Origin: Candidatus Nanohalobium constans
Lineage (GTDB): Archaea > Nanohalarchaeota > Nanosalinia > Nanosalinales > Nanosalinaceae
Length of the DNA stretch: 32,000 nt
Assembly: GCF_009617975.1 (NCBI RefSeq)
Contig: NZ_CP040089.1
Span: 930,001 to 962,000 of the forward strand
Reading direction: 5' to 3'
In this document: one piece after another, positions 20,004 through 30,460 of the stretch
Layout of the letters: the number at the start of each line of letters is the position of its first letter
How positions within the stretch are numbered: position 1 is the stretch's first letter
The notes under the pieces: generated by a model
Database searches by the model: none
Told to the model about the DNA's origin: nothing
What the model saw: the letters and a program-made list of their open reading frames with translations, nothing else
Made by a program: the position numbers and the translations under genes

Positions 20004-21005
20004 ATGAATTCTCAGCGGGGTTTTGTTCTGGTTTTGACCGCGGTTTTTTTGCTGATGGCAGGGCTGATGTTGAAGCCTTTTGTAGGGTATTTGTTGGGTA
20101 GTTTGGTTCTTGCTTTTGTTTTGCATCCCGCTCAGAAGTATTTGCGGAGGTTTATTGATGAGAGGATTTCAGCTTTTTTCTTGACTATTTTGAGTGTGCT
20201 GGTTTTCTTGCTGCCTTTTGCTATTATTGTGAGTACTGTTGCGGGAGATGCTTCCGGAGTAATTAATGATGTTACTCAGAATGAGGTTGTTGATATTGAT
20301 CAGTTGGAAGCGTTGATGGCAGAGTATACGGATGAAGATATAGATATTAGAACTCAGTTGAGAGATGCCGTCAACAGTTTTGTTTCCACAGCGCTTGGAG
20401 GATTTTCCCAAATTCTCGGCATTCTTACTGCAGTAAGTATAGGTGTGTCGATAATGTTGTTCGTGATTTTCTACCTGTTGAAAGATGGTGAGGAGTTTGC
20501 AGATTATTTGAAAGACTTGATGCCTCTACCTGAGGATATTGCAGATAGTCTTTACGCTAAGACCTACAGTACTACCTGGGCTGTTATTAAGGGTCATGTG
20601 TTGGTTGCTTTGGCTCAGGGAGCTATTGCCGGTATCGGTTTGTGGGTTGCTGGAGTTCCAAACTTTGTGTTCTGGACATTTGTGATGATTATGCTTTCGT
20701 TTATCCCTTTGATTGGTTCGTTCTTGGTTTGGGGTCCGGCAGGAATTTATCTTGTTGCTCTTGGAGAAGTTCATGCAGGAATATTTTTGCTTATTTACGG
20801 CGTTGTAATTGTTAATCTTACTGATAACTTTCTTAGACCATTTGTTGTAGATGAAAGTGCCGATCTTCATCCCGCTGTGATATTAATCGGCGTTATTGGC
20901 GGTGTGTATGTTTTCGGTGCTTCAGGCTTGTTTATCGGCCCGGTTGTTTTCGGTACTTTGAAGGCAGTTCTTGAGGTTTTTAACAAGCATTATCAAGAAC
21001 TTTGA
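20004..21005 (+). CDS. AI-2E family transporter (PerM/UPF0118)
   Basis: Family-typical C-terminal region NFLRPFVVDESADLHPAVILIGVIGGVYVFGASGLFIGPVVFG and 7-8 TM segments. Confidence 0.8.
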   Translation: MNSQRGFVLVLTAVFLLMAGLMLKPFVGYLLGSLVLAFVLHPAQKYLRRFIDERISAFFLTILSVLVFLLPFAIIVSTVAGDASGVINDVTQNEVVDIDQLEALMAEYTDEDIDIRTQLRDAVNSFVSTALGGFSQILGILTAVSIGVSIMLFVIFYLLKDGEEFADYLKDLMPLPEDIADSLYAKTYSTTWAVIKGHVLVALAQGAIAGIGLWVAGVPNFVFWTFVMIMLSFIPLIGSFLVWGPAGIYLVALGEVHAGIFLLIYGVVIVNLTDNFLRPFVVDESADLHPAVILIGVIGGVYVFGASGLFIGPVVFGTLKAVLEVFNKHYQEL

Positions 21006-21042
21006 ACCTGTTTTATAATATATACGTGAGACAGTTTGGATT

Positions 21043-21828
21043 ATGACTAGTCATCGTGAATCAGTTGTTTTAGCTGTTATAGCCGTTATTTTGGTTTCCA
21101 TTCCTGCGGCATCTCAGAATGTTGAAATCAGCGGAGAGGAAAATAAGCAGGGTGTGATCGATTCGAAGTTTTCTGATCGTTTTGAAGTTGATTTTGAGCC
21201 AGGTAAGGTTGTTAATGATTTGATGGATAGTGATGCGAGACTTGAGGTCAATCAAAGTTTTAGTAGAGATGTGAAGAGGCTTCAGACTTCTAAAGGTTTT
21301 GTTAAGATAGTTAGGACAAATGATTCTATTGAGAAAACTGTTCAGACTCCTTACGGTCGTTTTGAGTTTGGAGTGAAAGATGGCGATAATTACAGCGAGT
21401 TTTCTGGGAACAGCGGTTCTAGAGATGAGGCTGAAGAGGTTAGGGAGAACTTGATGGATGAGATGAGTCAAAGGTCTTCGGAGTTAAGTGAGAAGCATAG
21501 TGTCGTGGTTCAGGAAATGCTTCCGGATGTCAGTGCTTCGGTTGAGGATAATTCAGAGACAGAGCATTTGAATTTGACGAATAACGAGGAGGAGGCAGTT
21601 GATATTTCTGGTTGGAAAGCAGTTTCTATCAGTGGAGATAGTATGGAATACATGAACTTAACCGGCAAGCTGGAGCCTGGTGAGACTAAGACCTTCTTTG
21701 CAGGTGACGAAGGCAGGATGGAAAATTTCGGAGACAATACTGTTTTTAAAGACGTGAATATTTACAGTAATGCCTTAGTAAAGGTTTATAACGCTGGAGA
21801 GAAAGAAATAGTAAGTTTAGAGTATTAA
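21043..21828 (+). CDS. Secreted or membrane-anchored protein with a C-terminal lamin-tail-domain-like module
   Basis: N-terminal hydrophobic signal/anchor VVLAVIAVILVSIPAASQ. The C-terminus EHLNLTNNEEEAVDISGWKAVSISGD...LEPGETKTFF resembles the LTD pattern (E.V.L.N....VDLSGW.L......L.PG....). Confidence 0.55.
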   Translation: MTSHRESVVLAVIAVILVSIPAASQNVEISGEENKQGVIDSKFSDRFEVDFEPGKVVNDLMDSDARLEVNQSFSRDVKRLQTSKGFVKIVRTNDSIEKTVQTPYGRFEFGVKDGDNYSEFSGNSGSRDEAEEVRENLMDEMSQRSSELSEKHSVVVQEMLPDVSASVEDNSETEHLNLTNNEEEAVDISGWKAVSISGDSMEYMNLTGKLEPGETKTFFAGDEGRMENFGDNTVFKDVNIYSNALVKVYNAGEKEIVSLEY

Positions 21829-25473: not shown

Positions 25474-25833
25474 CTAATCTTCAAGTTCTCTAGTCTCAGA
25501 GTATTCTCTGTAATCTTTGTCGCTGGAAACTATCTTTTCTTCTCCAGATGCTACGAGATGTAGTGCATCGAAAGGAGTGAAGTCTTCCTCCTCTACATAG
25601 CTTGCTGCGGCTTCTACCTCTTTAATCTCTCCTTTTACATCAATCAACTCTATTGCTTCAGCTACTACCCTCAACACATTCATATTTTCCCTGTATGCGA
25701 TCAACATAAGTTCAATCAGGGTGTAGCGGGAAGTCCAAAGATCATCATTTTTCTTGTAAATTTCTCTGGCATTTTCCTGCAGCCAGTCATCATCTTTCAG
25801 TAGTGCCAGTACAAAATCTGTCTCAGCATACAT
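25474..25833 (-). CDS. vapC: PIN-domain toxin (VapC-like)
   Basis: Acidic residues at PIN positions (ETDFVLA; FDALHL; SSDKDY). 119 aa. It starts 1 nt after the stop of an AbrB-type antitoxin gene. Confidence 0.75.
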   Translation of the reverse strand: MYAETDFVLALLKDDDWLQENAREIYKKNDDLWTSRYTLIELMLIAYRENMNVLRVVAEAIELIDVKGEIKEVEAAASYVEEEDFTPFDALHLVASGEEKIVSSDKDYREYSETRELED

Positions 25834-25834
25834 T

Positions 25835-26059
25835 CTATCGGCCTGCCTCTTCCATAGCAGTCTCTAAAGCACCTTTCTTAAGCTCTTCTACAGACTTATC
25901 AGTGCCTTCAAACTCTTCTCTTAGTGCCTCAAGAGGATCATCAGAGACAGGGACCAGCATTATCTTATCCCCTCTATCTATAATATGGAACTTCTCACCG
26001 AACTTCTCCCTCATCTCCTTGGGAATGTATACTCTACCATTATCTGCAGTAGTAGTCAT
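25835..26059 (-). CDS. vapB: AbrB/SpoVT-type antitoxin (VapB-like)
   Basis: GRVYIPKEMREKFGEKFHIIDRGDKIMLVPV is a swapped-hairpin AbrB motif. ATG at 26059 (MTTTADNG) is preferred over the track start at 26098. Confidence 0.7.
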   Translation of the reverse strand: MTTTADNGRVYIPKEMREKFGEKFHIIDRGDKIMLVPVSDDPLEALREEFEGTDKSVEELKKGALETAMEEAGR

Positions 26060-26080
26060 AAAACAAGAATATTTGTCAAA

Positions 26081-26150
26081 ATTTAAAAATCTTACCAATA
26101 AGGGGGGGAAACGCCTATTCTTTTAATTGGTAATGAGTAATTAGTCATTA
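26081..26150. promoter_or_regulatory. Shared divergent control region of the two VapBC operons
   Basis: TATA-like ATTTAAAAAT (26081-26090, serving the minus operon) and TTTTAATT (26121-26128, serving the plus operon). 8-bp inverted repeat TTACCAAT (26092-26099) / ATTGGTAA (26126-26133). Second inverted repeat TAATGA (26131-26136) / TCATTA (26145-26150) abutting the ATG. G7 run at 26102-26108. Confidence 0.35.
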
Positions 26151-26359
26151 TGACTACTGTTACTATCAGCGAAGATACCCATAGAAAGTTGAAGAAGTTG
26201 AAGGAGAAAGAAAAAATCAGCTCTTTTGACGAACTTCTGGATAATATTGCAGAGGAGAAACTGGACATACCTTCATCCGAAGAGATGTTCGGCTCCATGG
26301 AAATTGAAGACAAAGAAGAGATTAGAGATCACGACGACAGAGCCGATAGATATGAGTGA
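26150..26359 (+). CDS. vapB: Antitoxin of the archaeal VapB type (RHH-like N-terminus, acidic tail)
   Basis: MTTVTISEDTHRKLKKLKEKEKISSFDELLDNI matches the pattern of archaeal putative antitoxins (TISISDEVY..L..LK....SFS..I..L). Its stop overlaps the PIN gene start by 8 nt. Confidence 0.65.
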   Translation: MTTVTISEDTHRKLKKLKEKEKISSFDELLDNIAEEKLDIPSSEEMFGSMEIEDKEEIRDHDDRADRYE

Positions 26360-26747
26360 ATACTTGCTTGACACATGGGCGTGGATAGAGTTCTACATCG
26401 GAAGCGAGAAAGGGAAAGAAATTTACCAGAAAATAGAGGAAGCGAAGTGTTACACCTCAATAGTATCCTTAGCGGAAATGTCTGACAATTACCAGTCAGG
26501 AAACCTAAAATCAGACAATAAATGGAGCGAAATTAGAGGCTTTGTAGAGTCTAAAACAGAAGTAGTGACTTTAACGCCCGAAATATGCGGAAATGCAGGA
26601 AAAATAAAACAGCAAGAAAGAGAAAAATTCTCAGACTTCGGACTAATGGATGCAATAATACTGTCAACCGCCAGAAAAAACGACCTAGAATTAATTACAG
26701 GAGACAAACACCTAAAAGATAAAGAAAGAGCAAAAAAGTTAGAATAA
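26352..26747 (+). CDS. vapC: PIN-domain toxin (VapC-like)
   Basis: LLDTWAWIEFY (first Asp), SLAEM, FGLMDAIILSTA and ITGDKHL. ATG at 26352 is preferred over the track start at 26226, which runs through the antitoxin gene. Confidence 0.75.
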   Translation: MSEYLLDTWAWIEFYIGSEKGKEIYQKIEEAKCYTSIVSLAEMSDNYQSGNLKSDNKWSEIRGFVESKTEVVTLTPEICGNAGKIKQQEREKFSDFGLMDAIILSTARKNDLELITGDKHLKDKERAKKLE

Positions 26748-26761
26748 AGAGCTGGAATTCA

Positions 26762-27610
26762 TTATTGCTTTCTTCTATCCAAGACAGGATTTACATTATC
26801 GAAAAATCTGTTTGAACTTGATTTTGCTACCCATACATTATTTTGCTGTATGTTACATTCTACATTGAGATTTTGAAGTATTTGCTGCACCATTTTCTTC
26901 TCTTGTTCATCATAGGAGCAGATTCTGGGCGACCCGCAAGGATGAAGATTTCCATCTGAATCGTATTGTCCTTCGATATATTTCCAGGCCTTCCCTTCTT
27001 CAAAAAGCCAATCCACTTTATTTTCCAAATTTTGTAGCCATTCAGCAAGTACTTGTGATGATGCCCAAACAGCGTCTTTGCCTTCTTTCTGTCCTGTATT
27101 AGGATTTAGACCTAAGGCTTTCAGGTTTTCTACAAATTTTTCAGCAAATTCTGAATCTTTGACTTCAAGCCCTATTGTGCCGTTATTATCATGAAATCCA
27201 TCTCCATCAATAACTCCTAGAATATAAGATAAAGATTCAGTTTGCCCGAATTTGACATCAATTTCATTTTCTTCGGCAAGTTTTCTGCATTTCTCAGCGA
27301 CCTCTTCACTATTCCTGTATTCTTCTTGGTTTCTTGCTAAACCTAGATCCATTGCCTTGAGCTTTATGGCATTCCAACTTCTCTCTGGAAGTAATTCTGA
27401 AATCTCGGATTTATCTCCAGGATAATTTTCCCTCAATATCCGCTTTTCTTCTTCTGACCACGGGTCAGCGATATCCGACTTAATATCATATTCGCTCATC
27501 CATTTAGAGACAGAAGACTGTGTAACTCCTAATTTTTCACCAATCTGTCTTTGACTCAAATCCTCATCGTGGTATAACCTGTAAAGCTCTTCAGCGCTTA
27601 CCTTAGACAT
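26762..27610 (-). CDS. Free-standing double-motif LAGLIDADG homing-endonuclease-like protein with N-terminal HTH and Myb/SANT-like domains
   Basis: Two LAGLIDADG motifs (LGVIDGDGF and IEGQYDSDGNL). N-terminal HTH LSQRQIGEKLGVTQSSVSKWM, then PWSEEEKRILRENYPG...SWNAIKLKAMDLGL. No intein splicing blocks. Confidence 0.75.
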   Translation of the reverse strand: MSKVSAEELYRLYHDEDLSQRQIGEKLGVTQSSVSKWMSEYDIKSDIADPWSEEEKRILRENYPGDKSEISELLPERSWNAIKLKAMDLGLARNQEEYRNSEEVAEKCRKLAEENEIDVKFGQTESLSYILGVIDGDGFHDNNGTIGLEVKDSEFAEKFVENLKALGLNPNTGQKEGKDAVWASSQVLAEWLQNLENKVDWLFEEGKAWKYIEGQYDSDGNLHPCGSPRICSYDEQEKKMVQQILQNLNVECNIQQNNVWVAKSSSNRFFDNVNPVLDRRKQ

Positions 27611-27650
27611 AAATCAAATTAGAAAAAAGAGAATAAAAAAGTTTAGCTAT

Positions 27651-28619
27651 TTAGAATGTTCCCGAAGCCATCAAAGGAACTTTAGACCCTGCTGCCGCAA
27701 TAGGAACGGCCATGTACCCCAATTTTCTCAATTTATCCATAATCTCCTTGTCGTCTTTGTTTTGGGCTCTTCCTGCTCTTTCTTTGGTGTTTTCTACATC
27801 TTGTAGCCATGCAGGGATTTCATCGCTTTTGTCTGTGGATACTTCGCTTCCTAGGCTTCTGAATCCTGCCCAGTACTTTGGTGAAATCGGTACATCGTCT
27901 TTGTTGAGTCCTTCCGGCAGATCTTCTTCTGTTTCCGGGTAGCTGTTGATTTCTACTCCTGTGATGTCTGGCACCATGTGGAACCAGGATACATCCCATA
28001 CATCTCTTTCGTCTAGTTGTAGGATGGGGTGTACTCTGATGTGGTCTGGGTCGCTTCTTGGACTGTAGAAGTCTTCGTCACCTCTACTTTCGTGTTCGTC
28101 CCATCTTACTCCGTTGATCACTGCTTCAATATTGTGGTTTTCAAGCAGTTCGTGCATTGGAACTGTTTTGAGAAGGTGGTTTCCTGCTTCTGTATCCATG
28201 AGCCATGGTACTTCTTCGTAGTCTCCTACTTCTTCAGCTGCTTCCTGATTTCTGTCGTTGAGTTCTGCCACAGGTACTTTGTCTCCTGGTTGGTCTGCTT
28301 TTTCTATTAGGTCTTCGTTTTTGGCCGTCATTACTTCGAATCCCCAGTTGTCGGCTAGTCTTTCGACATAGTCTTCGAGTTCGTCGAAGTGTTGTCCGTG
28401 GTCTACGAACATGAACTTGGGTTTGTCGAAGCCGTGTTCTTCGCAGACTCTTTTGACAAGCCATGCTGTCAGTGTGGAGTCTTTCCCCCCTGTGAATCCG
28501 ATTACTACATTGTCGGTGTCGTATTCTTCTAGTGCTTGTTTGACGACTTCTTCTCCTGCTCTGATTTTAGCTTTTATCGGTGCGTTCTCAATTTCGTCTC
28601 GTGTTACAGGTGCTTCCAT
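27651..28619 (-). CDS. PP-loop ATP pyrophosphatase of the PAPS-reductase/CysD family (sulfate adenylyltransferase subunit 2-like), orphan
   Basis: PP-loop VIGFTGGKDST, then VDHGQHF, NGVRWDEHESR, IRVHPIL, FRSLGS and TKERAGR...MDKLRKLGYM. By eye this is collinear with CysD along its whole length. Only one Cys, so no Fe-S or CxxC motifs. ATG at 28619; the track start at 28631 is a TTG. Confidence 0.8.
   Translation of the reverse strand: MEAPVTRDEIENAPIKAKIRAGEEVVKQALEEYDTDNVVIGFTGGKDSTLTAWLVKRVCEEHGFDKPKFMFVDHGQHFDELEDYVERLADNWGFEVMTAKNEDLIEKADQPGDKVPVAELNDRNQEAAEEVGDYEEVPWLMDTEAGNHLLKTVPMHELLENHNIEAVINGVRWDEHESRGDEDFYSPRSDPDHIRVHPILQLDERDVWDVSWFHMVPDITGVEINSYPETEEDLPEGLNKDDVPISPKYWAGFRSLGSEVSTDKSDEIPAWLQDVENTKERAGRAQNKDDKEIMDKLRKLGYMAVPIAAAGSKVPLMASGTF
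27714..27749 (-). repeat. Copy A of a 36-nt segment shared with the RHH gene (encodes KEIMDKLRKLGY)
   Basis: Codon-by-codon comparison with 28647-28682 gives 28/36 nt and 10/12 aa identical. Confidence 0.6.
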
Positions 28620-28637
28620 AGATAGTATCAACTCTGT

Positions 28638-28829
28638 TTATTCTAGATATCCTAATTGTCTCAGTTTATCCGCGATCTCCTTTGCCTGATCATCGTCAAG
28701 CTCCTCTTGCTGGTTCTCTGAATCAGCCAGTTCTCTAAGCTTGTCTTGTACGAATCTTGATAGATTGATGTGATTCTCATCGACAAACTCTGCCAAATCC
28801 TCAGGCAAAGAAATAGTCTTCCTCGGCAT
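28638..28829 (-). CDS. Ribbon-helix-helix (CopG/Arc-type) DNA-binding protein, 63 aa
   Basis: MPRKTISLPEDLAEFVDENHINLSRFVQDKLRE is a beta-strand/helix/helix RHH pattern, followed by an acidic linker and the tail KEIADKLRQLGYLE. The long track version (to 29081) overlaps the flippase gene and is rejected. The stop lies 18 nt upstream of the CysD-like ATG. Confidence 0.7.
   Translation of the reverse strand: MPRKTISLPEDLAEFVDENHINLSRFVQDKLRELADSENQQEELDDDQAKEIADKLRQLGYLE
28647..28682 (-). repeat. Copy B of the 36-nt segment shared with the CysD-like gene (encodes KEIADKLRQLGY)
   Basis: See 27714-27749: 28/36 nt identical. Confidence 0.6.
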
Positions 28830-28830
28830 A

Positions 28831-28847
28831 ATGCATAACTTATGCAT
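28831..28847. promoter_or_regulatory. Perfect 17-bp palindrome ATGCATAA-c-TTATGCAT; candidate RHH operator
   Basis: It lies between the TATA-like TTATTAA (minus strand, 28853-28859) and the start codon of the RHH gene at 28829, within the divergent intergenic region shared with the flippase gene. Confidence 0.5.
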
Positions 28848-28871
28848 ATTGGTTAATAAGTGGTTGGTGAA

Positions 28872-28903: not shown

Positions 28904-30460
28904 ATGGGAGATGCCGATCAAAAAGCATTGAACGCACTGGCAAAGGGTGCTGGCGTGACTGCGATAGGGATGGGTATTTCCAAGGTATTGACTTATCTTT
29001 ACCGGGTTTCAATTGCCCGTTTTGTTGGTCCTGAGGCGTACGGTCAGTTGTCAACTGCTTTGATGGTTGTCGGTATTGCAAGCACTGTCGCCTACCTGGC
29101 TCTGGGCTCAGGTTTGAAGAAGTTTATACCAGAATTCAGAAGTAGAGATGATTTTGCAAGTATTAAGGGCATAGTTATCAGTGCACTCCAGTTAACCGTT
29201 CCTGTATCTATAATCATTTTCCTGGCAGTGTTCTTCGGAGCAGAGTTCATCGCTGTAACTATTTTTGAAAACCCGAAACTAGTTCCTCTCATAAAGATTC
29301 TATCGTTCACTATACCTGCAGGAACCCTTTCCAGACTCTTCTTCGATACAACACTGGGATTCAACAAGATAATTTACAAGACCGGGACAGTCAGGATATT
29401 TCAAAACATTGTTCAGCTTGGGACAACCCTGATACTTCTTTTAATGGGTTTTAAAGTAGTGAGTGCTGCTTATGGCTGGTTACTGGGAACCGTAGTTGCT
29501 GCCATTCTCGGTTTCTACTTTATGGAGAAAAAAGTAGGTCCAATACTTTTCTCCAAGACTAAACCCTCCTATCACCGAAAAAAGCTGCTCAGATTTTCCA
29601 CCCCACTGCTACTCTCAGGAATAATAGGAACACTGCTCGGCTGGGCAGACACAGGACTGCTACAATACTTCATGGAAGACCTTGAAGTAGGACTGTACAA
29701 CGCAGCCCTGCCTACCGCCATACTGATACTTCTGCCTCACAAAGCAATTGGAAGCCTGGCAATCACTTCATTCTCCGAGCTAAAGGAAAGAGACAAAGAA
29801 AGCGTAGAGAGCTCCATACAAAGAGCCACATACTGGGTTTTCTCACTTGTATTCCCTACCTTCCTCATAATGCTCCTATTCTCAGACAAAATACTGCAAA
29901 TACTCTGGGGATCAGAATACACACAAGCCTCAATAGCACTCTCAATTCTAGCAACAGGATACCTAATAGACGCCCTAGTAGGCAGAGTAGGAAGCCTCCT
30001 CCAATCAGAAGGACACACAAAATACATACTATACAACAACACAGCAGCACTAACACTCAACATCATACTCAACATCATACTAATACCTCCATACGGAATA
30101 GCTGGAGCAGCAATCGCCACAGCAACCTCCACCATACTAACCAACGTATTAATGTACATCGAAGTCCGGAAAAAAGAAGGAATAAACAGCATACCCCACA
30201 AAAAAATCTCAAAAATAGTACTAACCGGACTAATACCACTATCAATCATAATAACACTAGACACAATACTCTTCACAAACACACCATACTGGTTCCTGAT
30301 CCCAGCAGGAACAACCTACATTACAACCTACATCCTCCTATTCCTCAAAACAATAGGACTTGGAGAAGAAGAAAAAGAAGTATTTCTCAGGATAGGAGAG
30401 ATCACAGGAACAAAAGATAAGGTTAAAAAAATACTGGCAACCATAGAGAGAAGAATTTAA
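28904..30460 (+). CDS. Oligosaccharide/polysaccharide flippase (MOP superfamily, Wzx/RfbX-like)
   Basis: 518 aa and about 14 TM segments. N-terminus NALAKGAGVTAIGMGISKVLTYLYRVSIARFVGPEAYGQ is typical of polysaccharide-biosynthesis (Wzx) proteins. Confidence 0.8.
   Translation: MGDADQKALNALAKGAGVTAIGMGISKVLTYLYRVSIARFVGPEAYGQLSTALMVVGIASTVAYLALGSGLKKFIPEFRSRDDFASIKGIVISALQLTVPVSIIIFLAVFFGAEFIAVTIFENPKLVPLIKILSFTIPAGTLSRLFFDTTLGFNKIIYKTGTVRIFQNIVQLGTTLILLLMGFKVVSAAYGWLLGTVVAAILGFYFMEKKVGPILFSKTKPSYHRKKLLRFSTPLLLSGIIGTLLGWADTGLLQYFMEDLEVGLYNAALPTAILILLPHKAIGSLAITSFSELKERDKESVESSIQRATYWVFSLVFPTFLIMLLFSDKILQILWGSEYTQASIALSILATGYLIDALVGRVGSLLQSEGHTKYILYNNTAALTLNIILNIILIPPYGIAGAAIATATSTILTNVLMYIEVRKKEGINSIPHKKISKIVLTGLIPLSIIITLDTILFTNTPYWFLIPAGTTYITTYILLFLKTIGLGEEEKEVFLRIGEITGTKDKVKKILATIERRI

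Follow-up and report, generated by a model that had tools for sequence, protein, structure and literature searches.

CysD and NodP are the closest described counterparts of the enzyme considered here. Its putative repressor is closest to small ribbon-helix-helix (RHH) regulators such as Arc, MetJ, CopG and NikR, and to type II antitoxins such as CcdA, ParD and FitA. In the superfamily of 3'-phosphoadenosine 5'-phosphosulfate (PAPS) reductase, the C-terminal segment is mobile and closes over the active site. In the Mesorhizobium nod locus, a DUF2061 gene is found with nodH, nodP (a CysD homologue) and nodQ, Nod-factor sulfation genes. We analysed a 32,000-nucleotide stretch of Candidatus Nanohalobium constans DNA (contig NZ_CP040089.1, positions 930,001 to 962,000; called the window below), in which a small RHH gene is followed by a gene for a CysD-like enzyme and the two proteins share a C-terminal peptide. 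A reading made from the letters alone (the sequence-only reading) had placed a 63-residue RHH protein at 28829->28638 and a 322-residue PP-loop protein 18 nucleotides on, and both open reading frames (ORFs) were found there. The features of this pair, in window coordinates, are:

28829 to 28638, minus strand: RHH (CopG-type) regulator gene LC1Nh_1186, a 63-residue ORF with an N-terminal ribbon-helix-helix, an acidic linker and a C-terminal tail helix
28641 to 28682, minus strand: RHH tail KEIADKLRQLGYLE, an instance of [IVL]xx[KR]L[RE]xLGY[LM]
28831 to 28847, no strand: operator-like palindrome ATGCATAA-s-TTATGCAT, with 1 nucleotide between it and the RHH start codon
28853 to 28859, minus strand: TATA-like box TTATTAA, read from sequence, about 25-30 nucleotides 5' of the RHH ATG
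28619 to 27651, minus strand: gene of the CysD-like PP-loop (PAPS_reduct) enzyme, a 322-residue ORF (Pfam PF01507, 5e-22)
27711 to 27749, minus strand: native enzyme tail KEIMDKLRKLGYM, the true C-terminus in most orthologues

The RHH ORF corresponds to LC1Nh_1186 (P0121) and the enzyme ORF to P0001 of Ca. Nanohalobium constans, each with 100% identity. On the minus strand the order is TTATTAA box, palindrome (ATGCATAAGTTATGCAT, 28847-28831), one base, RHH gene, spacer, enzyme gene and endonuclease gene. The spacer between the first two genes is 18 nucleotides long, both ORFs share one reading frame, and a weak Shine-Dalgarno-like GTTGA precedes the enzyme gene. Because of this layout the pair is probably co-transcribed, as far as transcription units can be judged from spacing. 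In an alternative annotation (P0122, 69 residues; MHKLCIMPRK...) the RHH protein starts at an ATG within the palindrome (window 28830-28847). The shorter form is more likely since orthologues keep only the MPRK start.

The two tails, encoded at 27714-27749 (KEIMDKLRKLGY) and 28647-28682 (KEIADKLRQLGY), are identical at 10 of 12 amino acids and 28 of 36 nucleotides. When the RHH protein was shuffled 20,000 times, its best 12-mer against the whole enzyme never reached 10 identities and reached 9 once. The match that the sequence-only reading had noticed is thus real and lies beyond shuffled controls. In an hhalign comparison of the enzyme and RHH family profiles, just these 13 columns were aligned (P = 2e-4). 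Most enzyme orthologues end exactly at ...LGYM, and all RHH orthologues examined (11 from genome loci and 118 from the protein database) end ..AKEIAxKL[ER]xLGYL[DEN](R). Aligned on Gly-Tyr, the pattern [IVL]-x-x-[KR]-L-[RE]-x-L-G-Y-[LM] is common to the enzyme (118 sequences), to RHH-a, the family of the window's RHH protein (118), and to RHH3 (50), another family of small CopG-like proteins from the same clusters. In the AlphaFold 2 (AF2) model, the enzyme tail forms a helix at residues 291-299 that is not confidently packed: its block has a mean predicted local distance difference test (pLDDT) score of 66, and the hinge at 285-289 is below 50. The model suggests an unpacked tail, as expected for a mobile or partner-binding segment.

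The tail is also found on enzymes. After an acidic linker it ends a 479-residue sulfatase-family protein (L017:1763-3202 and L008:3-392; L numbers denote the related loci), a haloarchaeal sulfatase-family protein (L033:1013-2464) and a 302-residue AP-like protein (L006:350-1258), all encoded a few kilobases at most from the enzyme gene. Other sulfatase-family (PF00884) genes, in L031 and L032, have no LGY tail, and the sulfatase-family protein of L017, inspected by eye, apparently lacks the usual CxPxR signature. RHH3 proteins (about 71 residues) are encoded in the same glycosylation clusters, often beside the flippase gene (L009:1390-1611, L013:1653-1871, L003:1614-1832, L001:4638-4919 and L007:3582-3842), and 50 of 50 database members end ..EEKVKxRL[RE]xLGY[LM]D. 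A search for RHH3 homologues in haloarchaea found none, which at this sensitivity suggests that only nanohaloarchaea have the family.

Candidate operators and regulators in two phyla

The palindrome at 28831-28847 (ATGCATAACTTATGCAT) has 8-bp arms around one central base and, even with up to 3 mismatches, occurs nowhere else in the window. It had been read as lying between a TATA-like box and the RHH start; it does so, and the arrangement is conserved. The form TGCATAAsTTATGCA (TGCATAAGTTATGCA) occurs 0-4 nucleotides 5' of the RHH start in 8 of 12 orthologous loci, and a TTTATTAA / TTAATAA box precedes it there. The two-gene module proposed earlier is conserved as well: of about 21 nanohaloarchaeal loci whose flank is long enough, 14 have RHH upstream of the enzyme gene (L003, L004, L006-L010, L017, L018, L021, L023, L031, L032 and the window). 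The two genes directly adjoin in N. constans, M3_22, N. occultus and N. haloferacivicina; elsewhere a gene for a DUF2061 membrane protein and one for a PF01663 phosphodiesterase-family protein of about 257 residues lie between them. The same box and palindrome occur 25-90 nucleotides before the enzyme start in L002, L005, L015, L019 and L025, and in L015 and L025 a flank of 4-6 kb upstream has no RHH gene. In 308 kb the nanohaloarchaeal palindrome has 15 matches, versus 0.045 expected, all at these promoters. Judged by these loci, the putative operator travels with the enzyme gene whether or not RHH intervenes. We take the conserved palindrome at the promoter for an operator-like element and predict that the RHH protein binds ATGCATAAsTTATGCAT and represses transcription. 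Two lineages, at L025:5925-6000 and L032:10195-10257, share some 50 conserved nucleotides (aatgcgaaatkcacagmatttctgtatta.cagaaaaacggaggttttt) that follow the operator or the RHH gene and precede the enzyme start. These could be a leader element or have been inserted.

A second regulator, which we call small-b, is a 66-residue protein (MSDYTTVSFK...) that takes the RHH position in L001, L013 and L024 and ends ..IGKKLKxLGY... Its gene adjoins the enzyme gene in L033-L035 and L049; in L033, a haloarchaeal contig of 65% GC, it lies 5 nucleotides 5' of it. The haloarchaeal small-b tail reads ..KLRDLGYME. Small-b was found in 23 metagenome loci, all of 58-73% GC, with the tail in every one. It is preceded by TAATTA-N4-TAATTA, a candidate small-b operator sequence (TAATTAGATGTAATTA) that occurs 21 times in 190 kb versus 0.045 expected, in 20 of 27 loci; each of these has a single copy apart from L044, which has two that overlap. 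The same element lies 4-6 nucleotides before stand-alone enzyme genes of Haloplanus halobius (L028, one mismatch) and Halorussus marinus (L029 and L030), none of which has an adjacent RHH gene. Two diverged regulator subfamilies with two candidate operators in two phyla thus appear to share one target gene. As comparative evidence for a regulon this is strong, and we regard the regulon as a well supported prediction.

The AF2 model of the window's RHH protein has an extended segment (1-9), helices at 10-18 and 23-39, a linker and a helix at 46-58. Its own profile matches are weak (RHH_5 and CcdA only). By tblastn (1e-8) its homologues include a haloarchaeal subgroup that bridges small-b and RHH-a and scores above the Pfam RHH_1 threshold (21.7 vs 20.5 bits). 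The strand and two helices of the model, together with this profile relatedness, place it among RHH proteins. Searched against 1.84 billion representatives, the RHH-a profile gave 88 matches, many of them RHH-only proteins. Full-length matches that took in the tail came from two clusters only, both of nanohaloarchaea; the remaining 86 matched in the RHH domain only or were repetitive proteins, and the ones inspected had no tail. Because RHH-domain relatives outside the halophile family do not carry it, we conclude that in halophilic archaea the tail was added to a generic RHH domain.

Enzyme family and pathway context

The enzyme contains the PP-loop FTGGKDST, in which T43-S48 is invariant in 60 homologues, and is collinear with CysD, including RxDExxSR, FRxLG and ERxGR...GY. 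The five motifs picked out by eye before (FTGGKDST, VDHGQHF, RWDEHESR, FRSLGS and ERAGR) are all in its translation. The best NCBIfam model was CysD, below cutoff: NF003587, NF009214 and TIGR02039, the curated CysD models tested, scored 75.4, 49.2 and 49.2 bits against 195, 413 and 396.6, respectively. CysH-type models scored 23-46 bits against cutoffs of 154-254. A profile of the 60 homologues matched Pseudomonas syringae CysD (1zun_A) at 4.8e-15, in an alignment that reaches residue 324 of 325 and pairs ERaGRaqdke..imeklrdlGY with the CysD chain end. Because the alignment runs to the end of 1zun_A, the enzyme tail is best explained as the ancestral CysD C-terminus, and the likeness to the end of CysD that the sequence-only reading had pointed out was borne out on this protein. 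The last 59 enzyme residues alone found nothing relevant among PDB sequences; the family profile was required. There is no cysteine among the invariant columns of the 60-sequence alignment, and the native end (...KLRKLGYM) has no ECGLH-type motif. Since it is without a C-terminal catalytic cysteine, the enzyme is not a reductase. The curated models and the 1zun_A match agree with the earlier view that it is CysD-like rather than CysH-like.

Orthologues are present in all sampled nanohaloarchaeal genomes (62-93% identity) and widespread in Halobacteria (about 52-54%), and the AF2 model has an overall pLDDT of 85.8. A Pfam search of 28 window ORFs found no CysN, CysC, Sat or CysH domain, in agreement with what the sequence-only reading had said of the window. 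These ORFs gave no GTP_EFTU-type match, and the gene tables for the related loci list none; the search did not extend to the whole genome. By its sequence the enzyme is probably a CysD-like adenylyltransferase, with sulfate as the leading substrate candidate. A partial, apparently frameshifted copy of its 5' half lies at L011:1845-2299, about 350 nucleotides 5' of an intact copy that carries a homing-endonuclease gene (HEG). Our literature search found nothing on this enzyme clade or on an RHH link to it, and the Agl7 papers, in the parts available, do not name Agl7's protein family.

Glycan sulfation is our best guess for the pathway, held with moderate confidence, because genes for DUF2061, PF01663 and sulfatase-family proteins repeatedly accompany the enzyme gene within glycosylation clusters, because the nod locus offers a parallel, and because haloarchaeal N-glycans include sulfated sugars (PMC3892788). 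A toxin-antitoxin (TA)-like or defence switch had been suggested from the homing endonuclease and TA modules close by. These neighbours are indeed there, whereas the switch was rejected: the enzyme is conserved in all the nanohaloarchaea sampled, glycosylation genes surround it, and PADLOC gave no real match to it, only SspD at 20.5 bits over PP-loop residues 39-102.

The homing-endonuclease cassette and the rest of the window

The enzyme gene does not end at its native tail. Its 3' end overlaps a mobile element, with these features:

27654 to 27710, minus strand: 19-residue read-through extension of the enzyme, AVPIAAAGSKVPLMASGTF, encoded by the 5' end of the homing-endonuclease cassette
26752 to 27710, minus strand: mobile cassette of 959 bp at the enzyme stop codon, defined by alignment of empty and filled sites (L005, L002 and L025)
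27610 to 26762, minus strand: gene of 282 residues with helix-turn-helix (HTH) and LAGLIDADG parts, within the cassette and 40 nucleotides after the enzyme gene

The cassette begins exactly after the GYM codon and replaced the enzyme stop codon and about 20 nucleotides beyond it. Its insertion at the stop codon explains the 19-residue extension on the host protein, which is disordered in the AF2 model (residues 304-322, pLDDT below 50). The predicted endonuclease matches LAGLIDADG_3 (27.9 bits vs a cutoff of 22.5) and the PADLOC HEase model. This domain, together with presence/absence polymorphism at a fixed site of a conserved gene, identifies a free-standing homing-endonuclease gene. About one sixth of 120 listed orthologues have 8-20 extra, poorly conserved hydrophobic residues after GYM. 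Among 8 extension-bearing loci, a LAGLIDADG homologue lies directly downstream in five (L011, L015, L020, L024 and L027), the haloarchaeal L033 has a LAGLIDADG match downstream in two pieces, L023 has an HEG remnant, and L014 has no detectable HEG trace. L007 kept the stop codon and has an HEG remnant downstream; L002, L005 and L025 are empty sites. The cassette is also present in L033-L035, where the copy on the 65%-GC haloarchaeal contig has 33% protein identity. We also considered the cassette as a bulge-helix-bulge intron and rejected this, as the junctions do not pair (z = 0.72) and no in-frame stop follows the 3' junction.

The sequence-only reading had reported a switch in codon usage near the end of the enzyme gene, to the usage of the RHH gene, and taken it to suggest recombination or gene conversion involving the tail. 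The switch is real, and is sharp at residue 291. Codons ending in A or C make up 84% of the body, 100% of the 13 codons before the tail, 36% of the 13 tail codons and 39% of the 19-codon extension (Fisher P: native tail 6e-4, extension 4e-5), and all 277 sliding 13-codon windows of the body lie above the tail value. In the RHH gene the figure is 42%. The switch is better explained by the HEG cassette, at whose junction it starts, and calls for no exchange with RHH. The last 19 codons have foreign usage because they belong to the cassette, and co-conversion may have reached the 13 native codons of the tail. In the closest HEG-free relative (L001), 8 of 11 tail codons end in A or C vs 4 of 11 in the window. 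The window tail is no closer to HEG-carrying than to HEG-free alleles, which leaves co-conversion without direct support. Across neighbouring window genes this fraction ranges from 0.27 to 0.84 irrespective of strand and is about 0.3 at 20004-21828; the enzyme body (0.84) has the strongest bias of all window genes and may be highly expressed.

The remainder of the window is an N-glycosylation and surface-glycan region, with genes for AglB/STT3, GT4, NDP-sugar pyrophosphorylases, phosphoglucomutase, epimerases, a sugar N-formyltransferase and a flippase. The Wzx-type flippase gene starts at 28904, divergent from the RHH promoter. Two TA pairs (MazE-like/PIN and VapB/PIN) lie at 25474-26747, between the endonuclease gene and the sugar-modification genes. 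The positions of such pairs differ among orthologous loci; in L007 a VapBC-like pair lies between the phosphodiesterase and enzyme genes.

Mechanism, alternatives and known systems

We consider a repressor-enzyme regulon coupled through a shared docking helix to be the most likely mechanism, and put its chances at about half; the contact itself is inferred. The helix with its Gly-Tyr cap is old and strongly conserved; the enzyme inherited it from the CysD family, and the RHH regulators carry it after an acidic linker. The RHH protein would bind the palindrome and repress transcription, and its tail would occupy the docking place that the mobile enzyme tail uses, whether this is on the enzyme body or on a partner common to both. 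How active the repressor is would be governed by the amount of unoccupied enzyme or partner, a feedback at the protein level. The enzyme would activate sulfate or a similar anion for glycan sulfation, and the tail-bearing sulfatase-like enzymes may use the same docking site. A fuller version is possible, though we hold it only tentatively: a single tail-binding site, on the enzyme or a partner, would be shared in turn by the enzyme C-terminus, by sulfatase-like transferases that take the unstable product, and by the RHH repressor. Competition among them would set transcription as a peptide-mimicry feedback across Halobacteria and Nanohaloarchaeota.

Several observations weigh against a regulon coupled through the tail. 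A haloarchaeal RHH_1 subgroup (L051-L056; MSDYTTVSIPKDLAERVEE...ITDQLRDLGYLE; e.g. L054:4001-4210) carries the tail with neither the TAATTA operator nor a nearby enzyme gene. Because this subgroup shows no enzyme link, the tail may be a general feature of the RHH superfamily, for example an oligomerisation helix. The proximity of the sulfatase-like genes is partly ascertainment, since the loci were chosen around the enzyme gene. Within genomes, co-variation of the two tails is weak (P = 0.03, uncorrected for phylogeny). Amphipathic strings such as 'KEIAxKLxxL' are common, and a leucine-rich repeat (LRR) protein matched that part of the profile. For the pathway, the DUF2061 and phosphodiesterase genes are absent from this N. 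constans window.

The tails could dock on a third protein, such as a CysN/EF-1alpha-like GTPase or a membrane component of glycosylation, and not on each other. We think this unlikely. It would agree with the ancestry of the tail in CysD, which works with the GTPase CysN, with the presence of the tail on at least six families after flexible acidic linkers, and with the poor packing of the enzyme tail in the monomer model. Against it, neither the window nor the related-locus gene tables hold a GTPase or other conserved candidate gene, and the CysD chain 1zun_A, of which only 204 of 325 residues are modelled, did not reveal what the tail does in CysND.

We give a similarly low weight to convergence on a generic amphipathic, Gly-capped helix, which would serve oligomerisation or stability in RHH and an intramolecular role in the enzyme and would have no regulatory meaning. 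The RHH subgroup with no visible enzyme link fits such a helix, as do the alignment of only 13 columns and the common capping pattern of a helix followed by LGY, which the LRR match illustrates. The pair match, however, is far beyond chance, and the tail has persisted in two phyla, in two RHH subfamilies that have diverged, have different operators and are each tied to the enzyme gene. Moreover, RHH relatives outside the halophile family are without it, and it also ends sulfatase-like enzymes of the same clusters.

A different doubt concerns the enzyme, which could be of the FMN (flavin mononucleotide) adenylyltransferase type, or another nucleotidyl-transferring PP-loop enzyme, with an incidental glycan-sulfation context. 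In Foldseek, CysD, FMN adenylyltransferase and APS (adenosine 5'-phosphosulfate)/PAPS reductase all matched at E values of 1e-8 to 1e-11 with TM-scores of about 0.45-0.55, and the best matches were human FAD (flavin adenine dinucleotide) synthase and Candida FMNAT. Judged from the predicted model, the fold search does not separate CysD from the other two, which also weighs against the assignment that we prefer. The N-terminal half of the enzyme family matches the PAPS domain of FAD synthase (2e-11, by profile), and most haloarchaea have the gene by itself and not in a glycosylation cluster. In contrast, CysD is the best sequence match and the sole one collinear to the C-terminus, the gene recurs beside DUF2061, sulfatase-family and phosphodiesterase-family genes, and DUF2061 accompanies nodPQH in rhizobia. 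We regard an enzyme of another type as quite improbable.

Least of all do we credit the proposal of the sequence-only reading that recent recombination or gene conversion copied the tail between enzyme and repressor, with the codon switch as its trace and a TA-like or defence switch as its product. It would account for the window's KLRQLGY, which is nearer the enzyme tail than the commoner KLEKLGY, for the sharp switch at residue 291 and for the TA modules and homing endonuclease nearby; yet all sampled RHH orthologues and the haloarchaeal relatives carry the tail, so that it is ancestral in the RHH family and not a recent acquisition in N. constans, the KLR variant is common to a whole RHH subclade, 28 of 36 identical nucleotides are as predicted from peptide identity and local codon usage (P(>=28) = 0.068), 5 of the 10 identical residues have different codons, the extension and the switch start at the HEG cassette junction, and the enzyme is widely conserved (52-93% identity) and has no real PADLOC match.

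The regulon coupled through a shared helix would open a first way into the regulation and function of an uncharacterised CysD-like enzyme that halophilic archaea conserve strongly, with a likely regulator and two candidate operator sequences named. If the tail does mediate contact, a repressor could in this compact manner follow the state of the enzyme it controls, with no need of a small-molecule ligand. The enzyme also offers a possible route for glycan sulfation in archaea, whose sulfated S-layer glycans are known. A stop-codon homing endonuclease in the symbiont phylum and the host phylum is a marker of gene flow between them.

Compared with known systems, the unit resembles an RHH-autoregulated metabolic operon with a type II antitoxin layout, and is not a TA or defence module. 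Like CysD and NodP, the enzyme has the TGGKDS PP-loop, RxDExxSR, FRxLG, ERxGR and a collinear end of GY plus a hydrophobic residue, and like NodP it sits among genes for modified glycans, beside DUF2061. Unlike them, it scores below the curated cutoffs, has no CysN/NodQ or APS kinase nearby, belongs to a clade specific to Halobacteria and Nanohaloarchaeota, and is predicted to be controlled by an RHH protein with the same tail. The defence proteins of the PAPS-reductase fold (DndC, SspD and BrxP) differ in their setting, as the enzyme has glycosylation neighbours and no defence-model support beyond the 20.5 bits of SspD. The cassette recalls the seg/mob homing genes of phage T4 in its presence or absence at one exact site in a highly conserved gene, its remnants and its distant hosts. 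It differs in having LAGLIDADG with an N-terminal HTH, in its insertion at a stop codon with a read-through extension, and in occurring in Nanohaloarchaeota and one high-GC haloarchaeon.

The regulator is built like CcdA, ParD and FitA, with a flexible linker between its RHH domain and a short C-terminal helix, and has the weak CcdA match. As in type II TA operons, the regulator gene comes first, its partner is close behind, and a palindromic operator lies at the promoter. In contrast to these operons, the partner is a conserved enzyme and not a toxin, and the pair is separable in many genomes with the operator kept; the RHH tail resembles the partner's own terminus, which is not an antitoxin feature. 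With Arc, MetJ, CopG and NikR it has in common a small RHH protein, an operator between a TATA-like box and the start, an autoregulatory position and a metabolic target gene. NikR and MetJ sense small ligands via a separate domain and the others do without one, whereas here there is only a 13-residue helix shared with the enzyme.

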